Source: a phage | Sequence record: OZ413489.1 | Strand: one strand, 5' to 3' | Length of the DNA stretch: 64,000 nucleotides | Shown: positions 53,771 through 59,372 of the stretch, in pieces | Layout: every line of letters begins with the position of its first letter | How positions within the stretch are numbered: the first letter of the stretch is position 1 | Notes under the pieces: generated by a model | Told to the model about the DNA's origin: nothing | Databases searched by the model: none | Seen by the model: only the letters and a program-made list of their open reading frames with translations | Position numbers and translations under genes: made by a program

Positions 53771-54034
53771 TTGTTACCGCTGGCTATCTTCAAAGATGCG
53801 GAAGCAAAACAACGCCGGATCTCAATACATGAGATCATCAACCTTAACGCTGGAGGCACACCATACCGCCCAGGACCTGGCCGTGAGATGGACAATACGC
53901 TAGCGATCCTGAAGATACGCCGTAAACGGTCCTCCCTTACTCTGGACTCATTACACACAATGCAGCCTCCGTTCCAGGTGACCGGGAAACGGATCGCCAG
54001 GTCCTGGACAAAGGCCAATGATCGGACCGTATAA
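53771..54034 (+). CDS. Possible gene with aberrant start (candidate frameshifted gene or non-coding transcript)
   Basis: 87-codon ORF with only a TTG start; a well-placed RBS (taggagttaaaatc) precedes an ATG at about 53764 in another frame that stops after 22 codons. Confidence 0.25.
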   Translation: MLPLAIFKDAEAKQRRISIHEIINLNAGGTPYRPGPGREMDNTLAILKIRRKRSSLTLDSLHTMQPPFQVTGKRIARSWTKANDRTV

Positions 54035-54120
54035 ATAAAAGTGTTTTGGTACTGATTTTGGGGTTGACTTGTTCGGCCCCTTTTGCTATTCTTATTAAAC
54101 GGGCGGCACTTGGGAACAGG

Positions 54121-54143
54121 GGGAGACAATCACCGGGCCTGCC
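54121..54143 (-). other. Conserved hairpin-core motif, copy C (inverted)
   Basis: Minus-strand ggcaggcccggtgattgtctccc, identical over 23 nt to copy A at 46681. Confidence 0.4.
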
Positions 54144-54168
54144 TGTCATATAAGAACTATAAAAACCG

Positions 54169-54197
54169 TTGACATCTGCCATGGGGTGGGGTAACAT
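54169..54197 (+). promoter_or_regulatory. sigma70-type promoter
   Basis: TTGACA-17 bp-TAACAT upstream of 54252. Confidence 0.45.
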
Positions 54198-54251
54198 TTA
54201 TCTTGAAGGGGCAAAAGTGCCCACACAACAACCAAGAGAGAGGAAAACACT

Positions 54252-54524
54252 ATGTCAAACTGGATTAATCAAGAAGTCGAATCACGTTTTAATGCTATTT
54301 GGGATCTCATCGAAAAAGAAGACGGCACATCAAGCCCCTACCTCAACAATTTGGAATTCCATTTTGTGGAAGCGATGAACGCAGAACATGATCACGAAGG
54401 TGGCGCGGATGAGTTCGCTAAAGGTTATGGCTTTAACAATGCCAACGAAATGATCGAGGCGGTAGTACTCCAGGCTGAGGAAGATTATCAACTAAAAACG
54501 CTTGAATTCTGCCGCCGCAAGTAA
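54252..54524 (+). CDS. Hypothetical acidic protein
   Basis: 90 aa; RBS agagagaggaaaac. Confidence 0.5.
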   Translation: MSNWINQEVESRFNAIWDLIEKEDGTSSPYLNNLEFHFVEAMNAEHDHEGGADEFAKGYGFNNANEMIEAVVLQAEEDYQLKTLEFCRRK

Positions 54525-54530
54525 TAAGAT
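54502..54530 (+). promoter_or_regulatory. sigma70-type promoter
   Basis: TTGAAT-17 bp-TAAGAT at the end of the upstream gene; a 5'-UTR hairpin gggccaaaaggccc (about 54539-54552) follows. Confidence 0.45.
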
Positions 54531-54584
54531 AATGACACGGGCCAAAAGGCCCACTAATCAGAACCGCACAAAGAGGTAAACATC

Positions 54585-54848
54585 ATGAAACGTCTTGATC
54601 AGCTCAAATTAGTTCAATATATGGCTTATCGTGTTCTTGAAGTCCAGAAAGGTAGCAAAAAAGAGGTTTGCGAGAAAGCTTATAAGATCTTCACTCGCAA
54701 AAAAGATGACTGGATGCTACGCCAGACTAAAAAGGCTGACATCTTGGGGTACCTGGAAGAAGAGATCCGCCTTGAAGAGCAAGAAGAGATCCGCCGTAGT
54801 GAGGCAGATTATCAGGCAGCTTGGGAAAACTGGATGAGCAACAAATAA
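54585..54848 (+). CDS. Hypothetical protein
   Basis: 87 aa; RBS aaagaggtaaac; last plus-strand gene before the non-coding region. Confidence 0.5.
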   Translation: MKRLDQLKLVQYMAYRVLEVQKGSKKEVCEKAYKIFTRKKDDWMLRQTKKADILGYLEEEIRLEEQEEIRRSEADYQAAWENWMSNK

Positions 54849-54867
54849 TACAACAAGGTGCACGGTC

Positions 54868-54893
54868 AGGGGCTTAAAGCCCCTTTCTTTTTG
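54868..54893 (+). terminator. Rho-independent terminator
   Basis: aggggc-ttaa-agcccct + ttctttttgtct. Confidence 0.75.
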
Positions 54894-55770
54894 TCTCCTC
54901 TTTTCCTACCACAAATGGCCCCGCCTGGCAAATGGAATAATCAACAAGCCAGCAATTAACCCCACTGTACAAACATACATATAAAATAACTATTGCATAA
55001 TTTTTCATTGTGTGGTAGCAGTGCCATTTTTACACGTTTTTCCTTCCAAAATTGCACGTAATGCAGCATTTGCACAAAATTTAACCTGATGCATATCTTC
55101 AATAGCTTGTCAACAACTAAAAATCTTTATAAGTCATACACTTACATAACTACAAAAACGTTTTCTACGTGAAAAATCGAGTATAACTATAGCCGCCAGA
55201 TCTCAGAATTTACGTACGCTCGCCATTCTATAGCCTGCTAAGCATTTATTCCAACCATAGAATAACGGAATAGTCAATACCTGCATAAAATAATTATTCG
55301 TGTAAACTGCATAACATAAATCGGCCCAGGTGTCAACATTTTTCGTAAACAGTCTGGAATTGTCACGTTAGGTTACCATAAGCAGAGAAATCTTTAGTCG
55401 TCTAATGTTTACTGTACATTACTATACTGACTGGAATCATTAGATGACTAAGAGAAAGATAAGAAATAATTAATAATGTAATTATTTTACCTGTAACAAT
55501 AAGGCAACTATGCAAACGAATGGCATGGCGCGACGGAGTCGCGACATAATATAAAAGCAGTAACCATCACCCCCGTGATAGTTTGTCTGCAAACTATTAA
55601 TCAGATCATAGTTGCCTTGTATTTAGTTAATCATGACATGACAAGCAAGGCAACTATAGATCTGCTAATAGTTGCCCTGCTTTTATATTATGTCATGCTA
55701 ATTATAATCAGTGCGATTATTGTCATGTATAATTATTGTCATGCAAACGAATGGCATGGCTGATTATCGG

Positions 55771-55860
55771 TGTGTAAACAGTCAATCATGTAAATGGTTA
55801 GCATGTGAACAATCAGGAATGTAAACAATCCAGTGTGTAAACTAATAGGTGTGTAAAAGT
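55771..55860. repeat. TGTAAAC-type iteron cluster
   Basis: gtgtaaaca, atgtaaatg, atgtaaaca, gtgtaaact, gtgtaaaag within about 90 bp. Confidence 0.45.
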
Positions 55861-56001
55861 GTCATGTTGTGTCAGTTAGGTCACATTATGTCAGACAAGT
55901 TTTTCTCCTCTTTGTCAAGTGCTGCATGAAAAATTTACAAGCTTGTATGGTAGCATTTTTGCGGCCCTGTTTACATTCAGTAATGTATGTATAATCCTTG
56001 T

Positions 56002-56165
56002 TGTGTGGGCGTTTAGACGTCTAGACGGTTGGAAGTCCACAGGTCAATATCTAATCTATCGGCTGCTAACTATATCCCACACATGTGTGGGCGTTTAGAC
56101 GTCTAGACGGTTGGAAGTCCACAGGTCAATATCTAATCTATCGGCTGCTAACTATATCCCACACA
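56002..56165. repeat. Perfect tandem duplication, 2 x 82 bp
   Basis: The unit tgtgtgggcgtttagacgtctagacggttggaagtccacaggtcaatatctaatctatcggctgctaactatatcccaca occurs twice head-to-tail with no mismatch seen; each copy contains the palindrome TAGACGTCTA; the junction forms CCCACACATGTGTGGG. Confidence 0.8.
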
Positions 56166-57461
56166 AATAGTAAGAAATATGATTGTTATATGCGTAAACT
56201 GTAACTCATGTTATCAATCCCTGTATGGATCGCCAGTGGTGCGCATAATAGGTATTATGTTAAATTGCCCGTAATGATAACAGTTCTCACAATGATAGGT
56301 ATTCTCATTCATCCACACAAAATAGGTTGCAAATGTTGTGCCACTGTGTGAACGGCCTGGCCTATTAATTTCTCTCACTGCCTCGATATTTGAGAATTGT
56401 TATAAGAATGAGAAGTATTCCCATTCCGTCCGCCTGGCAGCACTCCTGTAGGTCCTGCAAGGACTCTAGCTGAAAGCTAGACCCTTCGGGCCTCCCTGTA
56501 GGTCAGGTCAAAATCGTGGTAGAATTGGGCCTGTTCAGATATTTCTGGCTGACTCTTCAGGTCTGTGTGGGAAAAGCCAACCTCTCCGGCGGGGCAGGGG
56601 GTCATGACGGGAAAATTGCAGGTCAATTAAAAAATTTACGTGGTGTATGAAGCGCTCTTCAGGTAAGGCATGTATTATGGGATGAAACCCTCTTCAGGCA
56701 ATGATATTTGTGGGTGTGATATTTGCTGGAAAGCCAGATATGACGGGACTCCCGGCGGGGATGGGGTAGTACAGACAGGGAAAATATGAGAATGTAGTTG
56801 GGGAAATTGATCAGACAGGTAGAGTATGGAATATGTTACAAGTATGTTAAATATGGAGGTTGAATATCTGTAGGATTTGTGTGTAAAATCAAAGACTTAA
56901 GGGGTGTTGTGGTATTTTCTATAAATAATTCAAGTTTAATAGGCAATATTTGTCTCTATCCGCTTTGTGTGGTAAACAGATTCAGATTAGATTGGTTTAC
57001 AAGTGTATACATAATATACAAATTAAAGATACAAGAAACCCCCCTCCCCCTTCGGCTACCATTCACCTTTTCCTCTGACTGGTACTTAAACACTTATTCA
57101 GACTCTTCAGGTTATCACCCATATATCATATGGCAGTGACTGGTGTCCTCCGGCCCCTCTTTCGTCACCCGTCCGCTTCGCCATGCTAATGCCATAGCCA
57201 ATGGTTCGGTTGTTCACTCTGTTCACTCAGGTGTATCTCCATACCCCTTCAAACCGAAGAGAACAGAAAACCCGAATTACTCGGTAAAAGAAAAGAGAAG
57301 AACTTAATTTTATCAGGATAGGCAAGAATGTCAAGGCATGACTGCTCACTAAACAAGCAAACAGTCATGTGTGGAAGGTAAGTGATTGTGGTGGTGGGAA
57401 ATTTAGTTGAAAGATGTGTTATAGGTGCTCCCAGCACTTTAGCCGGGTAGCTAATTGTGTG

Positions 57462-57743
57462 TCAGTCCAGTGGTTCATCACCTACTTCACTGAAATCAAT
57501 GTTCATGGTCTCCTCCCAACCATCAATCTCAGCACCAGAGTAGAGATCTTTAGGACTTACTCCCAAAGCATCAGCAACAGAGTCCATATTTAACACCTCT
57601 GGCAGGTATGATTCATCGAATTCAAGGTAAATCAGGCCACGAGTGTTGTCAGCTCCACCAAATATTTCTATCTTCATGAAATCTCCTCTGGGAATGAGAG
57701 TGTGAACAGGGTTTATACGTTCCAATGCGCTGGAATTATGCAC
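57462..57743 (-). CDS. Hypothetical acidic protein
   Basis: 93-aa track ORF; possible true start at the internal Met (MKIEIFGG). Confidence 0.45.
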   Translation of the reverse strand: MHNSSALERINPVHTLIPRGDFMKIEIFGGADNTRGLIYLEFDESYLPEVLNMDSVADALGVSPKDLYSGAEIDGWEETMNIDFSEVGDEPLD

Positions 57744-57797
57744 GTTTGCCTCTTCAGGCCATGCTTCAGCATGAGGAACCTGTGTGGGCTCGGTGCT

Positions 57798-58010
57798 TCA
57801 TAGTCTACCACCCCTGAACTCTTCGTGCTCAGGCATAATAGAGAACCAGATATCTACGATGTCTTCCCACGTCAGGTCATCAGCCTCAGGATCTACCTGG
57901 AGCGAAGATGAAGAATCTTCAGAATCGAAGTTTTCCTCTTGCACTGGCTCAGTCAAGGGACATATAGTCACTCCTTTGGATGTCTCTTCAGATGCATGTG
58001 TGTTTATCAT
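57798..58010 (-). CDS. Hypothetical acidic protein
   Basis: 70 aa; ATG overlaps the stop of the upstream micro-ORF. Confidence 0.45.
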   Translation of the reverse strand: MINTHASEETSKGVTICPLTEPVQEENFDSEDSSSSLQVDPEADDLTWEDIVDIWFSIMPEHEEFRGGRL

Positions 58011-58096
58011 GTTCCACCCGTGAGTATTCCGGCAACAGCTGCTATGGACGTAATGATCATCAGGATCACCACTAAAACTTCGGACAATGTTCTCAT
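58007..58096 (-). CDS. Small hydrophobic peptide (29 aa)
   Basis: Minus-strand ATG after RBS tggag; MRTLSEVLVVILMIITSIAAVAGILTGGT; sits downstream of the minus-strand promoter at 58129-58158. Confidence 0.4.
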   Translation of the reverse strand: MRTLSEVLVVILMIITSIAAVAGILTGGT

Positions 58097-58128
58097 TGTG
58101 TACTCCATATTCTACAAACTATGTGTGG

Positions 58129-58158
58129 ATACTATCACTGGATCGGTAATGTGTCAAC
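58129..58158 (-). promoter_or_regulatory. sigma70-type promoter (minus strand)
   Basis: Minus-strand reading TTGACA-17 bp-TAGTAT. Confidence 0.5.
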
Positions 58159-58312
58159 AGAAACGCCGCGAGGGTTTGGTTAAAATCCGAGCGTATGGTG
58201 ATTTGGGTCAAAACGGACGTGCGTTCTCGCTACGCTCGAAATATGGAGTTGTTTGTAGGGAGCTCTTAAACGCTCTGTAATGAAATTAACTACCCAAGGT
58301 ATGCAATCGTGC

Positions 58313-58346
58313 ACCAGACAAAGAAAAGGACGCCACAGAGCGTCCT
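58313..58346 (-). terminator. Rho-independent terminator (minus strand)
   Basis: Minus-strand hairpin ggacgctctgtggcgtcc followed by ttttctttgtct, downstream of the gene ending at 58371. Confidence 0.65.
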
Positions 58347-58370
58347 AGGTGTCTTAAATTTGATATTTTG

Positions 58371-58682
58371 CTATACCCACGAGGGCTTATCAAGGTTGGA
58401 GTAGCTGAAAGGTGTCAAAAGGTGACTGTCAAAATCTCTCAAACTATCCAAATCTTTTTCCTCGTCCTGACACCATCTGTGCCTACATTTGTTGTTGTAG
58501 TGCATGGAATGCATAGCGTTCTGCAACTTAACAGGCACAAGTGATTCAGGAGTAGATAGTATTGTTGGGTATGCCAGAACCACCTCAAACAGTGGAAACA
58601 CATCGAAACTAAAGTCTACCTCTGCAGAGGTTGATGGCATATAGGAGTATTTAGCCGCCTTTGTAGACATAATCCACCTCAC
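58371..58682 (-). CDS. Hypothetical protein
   Basis: 103 aa; start overlaps the upstream stop. Confidence 0.5.
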   Translation of the reverse strand: MRWIMSTKAAKYSYMPSTSAEVDFSFDVFPLFEVVLAYPTILSTPESLVPVKLQNAMHSMHYNNKCRHRWCQDEEKDLDSLRDFDSHLLTPFSYSNLDKPSWV

Positions 58683-59066: not shown

Positions 59067-59372
59067 TTATTCTACAGAGCGTTTGAACAGAATGTCTGCC
59101 TCAGACATGTGCTCAACCTCTTCTTCGATTTTAGCTCGACGTTTTTCAGCCTCATATCGAATATCGAACTCGGTAGCCACCAGAGATTTGATGAATTTAG
59201 GAGAATACAGATGATCCTGCTTCTCAACAAGAATGATATCCTTGATGGCATCTTTCAAATCTTTAATCTGAAGCTGGAGTTCCACCAGTTCTTCAATTGT
59301 TTTGCGAAGGCGATCACGTTCTGCAGTGTCAGAAGGAAGAGAGGTGAACAGTTCAACTTTAGATTTAGCCAT
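59067..59372 (-). CDS. Hypothetical coiled-coil protein
   Basis: 101 aa; RBS taaggagac; charged heptad-like sequence. Confidence 0.5.
   Translation of the reverse strand: MAKSKVELFTSLPSDTAERDRLRKTIEELVELQLQIKDLKDAIKDIILVEKQDHLYSPKFIKSLVATEFDIRYEAEKRRAKIEEEVEHMSEADILFKRSVE

Follow-up and report, generated by a model that had tools for sequence, protein, structure and literature searches.

The record OZ413489.1, analysed here over a window of 64,000 nucleotides (nt) of phage DNA, contains a 2.6-kb gap between two convergent gene blocks, and this gap probably represents the terminal region, or concatemer junction, of a phage whose genome is packaged via short exact direct terminal repeats of the T7 type. 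The original prediction, made from the letters of the window, had described a repeat-rich non-coding region and had proposed, among other candidates, a packaging site or the physical genome ends joined during assembly. Elements of this kind are already known, and each of the pieces has been noticed separately in the genus before; the locus is real, conserved and apparently essential, and its explanation is largely conventional. A megablast search with positions 54850-57470 as the query matched 122 phage records, all of them Vequintavirus (rV5-like myoviruses of Escherichia coli) with 90-97% identity, and most of the query was covered in 98. A more sensitive nucleotide search in distant mode returned the same 122 Vequintavirus records and no further ones, and a pattern scan of IMG/VR for the region added just two loci. 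By its sequence, the window genome is that of a Vequintavirus, an rV5-like coliphage.

The evidence comes from relatives of this phage. In the records of EdH4 and Gotham the first and last 459 bases are identical, in that of HdK5 the terminal-repeat sequence matches at two places, and in Gotham the repeat copies are annotated as repeat_region. A 458-bp terminal redundancy has been published for EdH4 and HdK5 (PMC6563267), and 459-bp repeats with one specific packaging start for Gotham (PMC7471380). These three repeats are homologous to the window sequence and have identical boundaries, with the window repeat being 82 bp longer; on the window they map to 55893/55894 and 56434/56435 (a slash marks the boundary), and the flanks outside the repeat match on both sides. 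Because the end repeats of the relatives map there, positions 55894-56434 are read as a direct terminal repeat (DTR) of which the permuted assembly retains a single, collapsed copy, and its length of 541 bp is explained by 459 bp plus one extra 82-bp unit. Homology thus places both the repeat and its boundaries, and the suggestion of genome ends joined during assembly is directly supported; that of a packaging site follows from it, since sequence-specific end formation must occur at the genome ends. The features that define the gap and the repeat are the following:

54848, plus strand: end of an open reading frame (ORF), left edge of the gap
54868-54894, plus strand: intrinsic terminator (stem-loop 54868-54884 plus a T run) closing the plus-strand early-gene block
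55894-56434, no strand: DTR, one collapsed copy, 541 bp, placed by homology to the record ends of relatives
55895-55940, plus strand: conserved terminal motif ACAAG-TTTTTCTCCTC-TTTGTCAAG...AAATTTAC at the repeat start, 0.99 identity
56002-56165, plus strand: perfect 2 x 82-bp tandem duplication, 100% identical, inside the DTR and private to this genome
57462, minus strand: stop of the gene spanning 57462-57677, right edge of the gap

Both edges agree with the original prediction, and the hairpin at 54868-54884 supplies the terminator that it had assigned to the plus-strand block; the records of Alma, EdH4 and Gotham likewise mark it as a terminator, and Table S4 of the rV5 report lists it as t164. 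In the orientation of the window, the repeat begins with GACAAGTTTTTCTCC at 55894 and finishes with CCATTCCGTCCGCC at 56434, and the cut-site sequences are ATTATGTCA/GACAAG on the left and CCGTCCGCC/TGGCAG on the right. Furthermore, at least eight other records from other laboratories (Pr121LW, Aya, ECP2303, ECP2309 and bov10K2/11CS3/22_2/25_3) begin or end at the 55894 or 56434 boundary, bringing to at least 11, from several laboratories, the records with a terminus at either boundary, as expected of fixed termini. The presence of the same sequence at both ends is observed for the homologous sequence in relatives and extends to the window isolate by homology only. Relatives with determined ends show two fixed ends and an exact repeat, and not the circular permutation of headful packaging from a pac site.

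Some minor observations concern the repeat and its cut sites. Small palindromes lie at both cuts, TGTC-A-GACA (55893) and GCC-T-GGC (56435), with the boundary beside the central base; in rV5 the central T of the second is an A and the arms are intact, and at the boundaries of Klebsiella phage KPP-1 such palindromes are not obvious, and we give them little weight. The 10-mer CCGCCTGGCA across the right cut (CCGCC/TGGCA, 56430-56439) recurs at 54921-54930, which is within chance expectation for a 2.6-kb region and is given no weight. A TATAAT at 55990, inside the repeat, has a poorly spaced -35 element and was not called by the promoter scan.

The 82-bp tandem duplication had been the headline feature of the original prediction. 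It is present at 56002-56165 exactly as claimed, with the palindrome TAGACGTCTA once per unit (56014 and 56096) and the 16-bp junction palindrome CCCACACATGTGTGGG at 56076-56091, but it is not a conserved functional element, being absent in about 120 relatives. Comparing its copy number in related isolates, a check proposed together with the prediction, gave a single unit in each of them: a query made of the unit junction aligns with relatives only in two separate parts that fall on one and the same 82-nt span (120 records, none with the junction), and none of the 20 relatives that were aligned has a second copy. An 8-bp inverted repeat, TGTGTGGG and CCCACACA, closes off the unit, whose fold has z = -3.2. 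The duplication is probably a recent isolate-specific length variant of the repeat, although sequence alone cannot tell it from an assembly artefact. An artefact of the double-coverage terminal repeat would account for a copy that is perfect and unique among about 120 relatives, that sits where twofold coverage is expected and whose edges lack microhomology; we consider it unlikely, given that 82 is unusual as a k-mer overlap and that both edges fall exactly on the 8-bp inverted repeat closing a stable stem, which suggests a real, structure-driven event.

The gap is truly non-coding, as had been predicted, and this conclusion is borne out by ORF length, codon-position variation, ORF breakage and profile searches. 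The longest stop-free stretch in the region is 91 amino acids (aa), against 96 +/- 19 in shuffled sequences. In an alignment of the window with 20 relatives (21 sequences), most ORFs of the region are interrupted, and the best candidates are hit by the insertions and deletions (indels) of 1, 2 and 20-22 nt that are common here. Variable columns are distributed evenly over codon positions, for example 15/15/14 for a 47-aa ORF at 56208-56351, whereas the adjacent real gene at 57462-57677 gives 9/5/36, and a third-position bias was found in no ORF of the region. The ten longest ORFs had no match in PHROGs and, in Pfam, only one to DUF4390, below the curated threshold; Rfam 15 gave no match at E <= 1 for 54000-58500 on both strands, and a tRNA scan with ARAGORN found none. 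The 47-aa ORF, which lies inside the repeat, had looked coding-like on sequence-weighted substitutions (26/10/45), and it was rejected because of its column counts and of the 19 distinct 'proteins' that it would encode among 21 genomes. The rV5 genome paper had likewise reported 'no observable ORFs' at nt 104013-106618 and had drawn there a grey 'non-coding' box (PMC3606486), which sequence comparison identifies as the same locus. Public records leave the stretch unannotated or contain short 'hypothetical' ORFs that are scattered over it and are not the same in different records. It is true that ORFs of 30-70 aa are annotated here in several GenBank records, one as 'structural protein' (APCEc02) and another as 'putative membrane protein' (A51.2); that they represent small protein-coding genes escaping annotation elsewhere is extremely improbable in view of the breakage of most ORFs in relatives, of lengths equal to those in shuffled sequence, of the even codon-position variation and of the outcome of the profile searches.

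Non-coding as it is, the region is conserved. Most of both arms and of the repeat is 0.9-1.0 identical to the relatives, equal to or above the flanking genes, and the only two hypervariable segments both lie immediately outside the repeat, at 55689-55868 on the left and 56449-56498 on the right. It also seems to tolerate no insertions: in a HIDEN-SEQ transposon screen of phage Bas54, no insertions were recovered in an essential gap of about 2 kb between bas54_0134 and bas54_0135, and the preprint leaves the function of this gap open, with no mention of terminal repeats (10.1101/2025.11.20.689424). Bas54 is phage MaxBurger, and these two genes flank a 2,512-bp homologue of our region with 95.6% identity, so the intergenic region of Bas54 and the window gap are the same locus. 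The window version of the gap contains 227 TA sites, the targets of mariner transposons. The signals flanking the repeat are thus conserved and apparently essential.

In the DNA of the virion, the left arm is unique sequence just inside the right-hand terminal repeat. Its elements are:

54849-55893, no strand: left non-coding arm, GC content 35-38%, 0.9-0.98 identity to 20 relatives except at 55689-55868
55510-55529 and 55741-55760, plus strand: two exact 20-nt direct repeats ATGCAAACGAATGGCATGGC that bracket the palindrome
55543-55694, no strand: compound palindrome with an 18-bp perfect outer stem (55543-55560 and 55677-55694)
55773-55858, plus strand: six TGT[AG]AA[CAT] cores with a period of 15-16 nt, copy number and spacers varying among relatives
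55859-55893, plus strand: four (G/T)GTCA cores spaced by about 10 nt, of which the last reaches the left cut site, copy number variable

All the repeats named in the original prediction, in this arm and elsewhere in the gap, are present where it had placed them and lie far beyond chance. The 18-bp inverted repeat of the palindrome, the ATAGTTGCC sites and the TGTCA array come in addition to those that it had named. Within the outer stem, the compound palindrome contains a hairpin at 55562-55583 and a long hairpin of ATAGTTGCCYTG sites (55608, 55646 in reverse complement, 55668), with a fourth site at 55500, also in reverse complement; four ATAGTTGCC sites alternate in orientation, and the enclosed hairpins are built partly from them. 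Folded as single-stranded DNA, the compound palindrome gives z = -8.2, with a signal of the same strength on either strand, which indicates a feature acting at the level of DNA rather than RNA. The stems are invariant in 20 of the 21 genomes; in rV5 and A135 the apical loop (about 55640) is extended by 33 inserted nt. Small hairpin-forming inserts come and go in the left arm, such as CACCCGAAGGGGTGACCAAAGGTCACCTGGC near 55700 in rV5_ev156. The bracketing 20-mer occurs exactly twice in the window, at 55510 and 55741, as predicted, and phage FV3 (NC_019517) lacks exactly the 231 bp between the two copies, palindrome included. SYGMH1, of the same species as FV3, keeps the 231-bp segment; in FV3 the direct repeats have either truly recombined or been collapsed by the assembly. 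The predicted TGTAAAC-type cluster consists of six phased cores (starting at 55773, 55789, 55804, 55820, 55836 and 55852), just three of which are exact TGTAAAC; across both strands of the 64-kb window the degenerate motif has 77 occurrences, which means that six phased copies in 80 nt are not due to chance. The segment 55689-55868, made of short repeats and adjoining the terminal repeat on the left, varies by copy-number indels with identities of 0.62-0.77, and the TGTAAAC-type array, at 0.62-0.65, has the lowest identity of the region.

The right arm is organised differently and is made of the following elements:

56449-56498, plus strand: variable, hairpin-rich insert of about 50 nt just outside the right cut, hypervariable
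About 56547-56616 and 56684-56785, plus strand: two diverged copies of a G-rich module, within 56547-56785
57039-57368, minus strand: ultraconserved block, about 26 variable columns in 330 nt among 21 genomes
57307-57334, minus strand: strong sigma-70-type promoter (TTGACA, 16-nt spacer, TGaTAAAAT; 11 of 12 consensus positions plus the TG)

The insert is bounded by the direct repeat CCTGTAGGTC (56445 and 56495) and is absent or different in most relatives. The G-rich modules have the composition CTCTTCAGG...TGTGGG...GAAAGCCA...CCGGCGGGG...GGGAAAAT and suffer indels of 20-22 nt and 1 nt in relatives. The words that had been noticed here are confirmed: CTCTTCAGG at 56553, 56655, 56690 and 57103 accounts for four of the five plus-strand copies in the window, and CCGGCGGGG (56586, 56752) and GGGAAAAT (56609, 56778) are each found twice. 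The ultraconserved block is more conserved than the flanking genes. The promoter that it contains, read from 57334 to 57307, is the best promoter match of the region, belongs to the same class as the rV5 promoters P074 and P051, is kept in 20 of 21 sequences and points at the repeat with no ORF downstream. Compared with complete E. coli genomes, the right arm showed no similarity.

A comparison outside the genus comes from KPP-1, a Mydovirus, for which a 514-bp repeat at 116316-116829, with about twofold coverage, was assigned to the T7 type by PhageTerm (PMC9862379). Its surroundings are of the same kind as in the window, a gap with few genes towards which blocks of small genes converge. When KPP-1 is reversed, the start of its repeat falls in register with that of the window, with ACAA, a pyrimidine run, TTGTCAAG and AAATTTAC, a score reached by 4 of 500 shuffles; at the other boundary 13 of 18 positions match in fixed register (CTGTCCGTC/TAGCACCGC against CCGTCCGCC/TGGCAGCAC in the window; binomial p about 3e-5). 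A compound palindrome is found on the same side, with a 21-bp perfect outer stem and z = -9.2, built in this case from ATGATAA...TTATCAT sites, and the opposite side shows weak matches to the G-rich modules of the window, including GGCTGACaCTTCAGGTC, a motif similar to CTCTTCAGG. The two regions differ in that they have no detectable overall nucleotide similarity, the right arm of KPP-1 is only about 330 nt long, and TGTAAAC or TGTCA repeats are missing from the 45 nt outside the KPP-1 boundary that corresponds to the left one. An architecture common to two genera, with little conservation of sequence, argues for function.

Phages T7 and T3 carry a short exact direct repeat that is present as a single copy at each concatemer junction and is duplicated during packaging, with sequence-specific ends; non-coding DNA with arrays of short repeats adjoins it, and a promoter directs RNA polymerase into the junction. 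For T7, it has been proposed that a hairpin intermediate arises from an inverted repeat located at the right-end side of the junction. These features were reportedly described by Dunn and Studier in 1983 and by Chung, Nardone and Hinkle in 1990. The window region resembles T7 and T3 in its exact direct repeat, in the adjoining arrays, in the inverted repeat of the right-end side, which is the palindrome 200-350 bp from the left cut, and in the promoter directed into the junction. It differs from them in several respects: T7 and T3 are 40-kb podoviruses with a 160-bp repeat, whereas the window phage is a 137-kb myovirus and the repeats span 459-541 bp; the sequences do not resemble each other; in the window phage, transcription of the two gene blocks beside the gap runs towards the ends; its promoter belongs to the host sigma-70 type; and about 2 kb of flanking DNA seem to be needed.

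From these comparisons we infer the following roles for the individual elements. Concatemers would contain one copy of the repeat (55894-56434) between the 3' ends of the two convergent early-gene blocks, and the terminase would cut sequence-specifically at 55893/55894 and 56434/56435, forming the genome ends. The repeat would then be duplicated by DNA synthesis, leaving each virion chromosome with a copy at both ends. The non-coding arms, of about 1 kb, would act in cis as DNA and not as genes. The palindrome of the left arm may provide a hairpin primer for duplication of the repeat, by analogy with T7, or a protein-loading site. The two phased arrays running up to the left cut may be bound by the terminase or bend the DNA, and the promoter with the ultraconserved block may deliver RNA polymerase or RNA to the junction. 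The general scheme, with one repeat per concatemer junction that is duplicated during packaging, is that described for T7-style phages (PMC10438801). A more ambitious proposal, which we regard as a long shot, is that the flanking non-coding DNA, about 2 kb in all, acts in cis as an essential 'end-processing centre', a type of element still to be dissected in large myoviruses, with host RNA polymerase transcribing from the promoter into the junction and the palindrome then priming duplication of the repeat, or that the ultraconserved block is a new essential phage RNA.

Other functions of the arms have to be weighed against this assignment. A replication origin located in the left arm, with the six TGTAAAC-type repeats as iterons, could coexist with the terminal repeat, and it would explain the phasing of six direct repeats at 15-16 nt, the strong palindrome, the GC content of the arm (35-38%, against 43.8% for the whole window) and the intolerance of the whole gap to insertions seen in Bas54; the rV5 authors also saw a change in nucleotide skew here (PMC3606486). 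This skew change, however, coincides with the switch in transcription direction, and the repeat arrays stop exactly at the terminase cut. An origin fits less well than a terminal region because the would-be iterons are the least conserved segment, changing copy number among close relatives, because DnaA boxes show no enrichment (one near-match where about 1.4 are expected, with 34 in 64 kb) and because no initiator gene is adjacent; we consider it a doubtful, though not negligible, possibility. As regards the right arm, it could encode one or more non-coding RNAs, or transcription into the repeat could itself be the function, driven in both cases by the promoter at 57334-57307, whose transcript would cross the ultraconserved block towards or across the repeat. 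In T7, pausing of RNA polymerase at the concatemer junction is needed for processing. What speaks for such a role is a region's best promoter match that has no ORF downstream, the near invariance of the 260 nt that follow it in 21 genomes, and the position of the minus-strand terminator-like sites, a weak one at 57284-57272 and the next only at 55583-55562, past the repeat. What speaks against it is that, besides the empty Rfam search, folding of the ultraconserved block on either strand shows no excess stability (single-sequence z = -0.8), and folding of the alignment gives just z = -2.4 for 57160-57305, with inconsistent z-scores for the right-arm modules and too little variation for covariation. 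Furthermore, the short right arm of KPP-1 has no counterpart of the block, and overall an RNA or transcriptional function appears improbable.

Several points weigh against the interpretation as a T7-type terminal region. The ends of this particular isolate are placed by homology alone, and the rV5 paper called its genome circularly permuted, assigning neither a function nor a terminal repeat to the ORF-free box between convergent transcription units (PMC3606486); a 2026 report, using PhageTerm, inferred headful packaging for another Vequintavirus. Since FV3 is without it, the palindrome may not be needed, provided that the FV3 record is correctly assembled. No other part of the region varies as much as the arrays next to the left cut, and in KPP-1 the 45 nt outside the corresponding boundary hold neither TGTAAAC nor TGTCA repeats, both of which are odd for a strict recognition site. 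The ultraconserved block carries no assigned function, and the lack of insertions in Bas54 could partly reflect the selection design of the screen, with a possible need for transcription at the insertion site.

The interpretation as a terminal region joins at one locus three observations that had been made separately: the rV5 box (2013), the 458-459-bp repeats (2019-2020) and the insertion-free region of Bas54 (2025 preprint). The reports on EdH4, HdK5 and Gotham give the length of the repeat only, with no link to the non-coding box and no description of the flanks (PMC6563267, PMC7471380). What is new here are the exact boundaries in a collapsed genome, the element-by-element map, the cross-genus comparison and the isolate-specific 82-bp expansion; rV5 itself differs from the window in having a longer TGTAAAC/GTGAAC array and a single 82-bp unit. 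Most of the about 120 public genomes were deposited permuted and with the repeat collapsed, and they can be re-oriented at ATTATGTCA/GACAAG and CCGTCCGCC/TGGCAG. The rV5-like phages are popular for therapy, and in their engineering the 2.6-kb stretch is best left intact. The mapped arrays, the palindrome, and the promoter with the ultraconserved block are targets for studying how a large myovirus makes exact terminal repeats.

The genes neighbouring the gap encode small proteins whose function is not known, and its left boundary is polymorphic. In rV5, SophiaRose, JEP1, MaxBurger, FFH2 and YP-6 a 420-nt ORF adjoins the gap; within this ORF the Pr121LW annotation places a Rel homology domain. 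At this edge the window has a 264-nt ORF alone (54585-54848), and rV5_ev156 has both. The 264-nt ORF is labelled 'DNA translocase FtsK' in several records, which looks like an unsupported, carried-over annotation. About 1.6 kb from the gap, on the minus strand, a 101-aa protein (59067-59372) has identities of 98-100% within Vequintavirus and of 42-60% in Seunavirus, Mydovirus, Certrevirus and others; it is annotated in some records as a transcriptional regulator or a double-stranded-DNA-binding protein and is a candidate binder of the repeated sites of the region. In phage PVP-SE1 the neighbourhood of a shared nearby gene is not syntenic and so says nothing about the gap. Finally, 19 'UNVERIFIED: Campylobacter phage' records (GenBank MG0656xx) are rV5-like coliphage genomes, 92-96% identical in the region; probably they bear a wrong host label or come from contaminated preparations.

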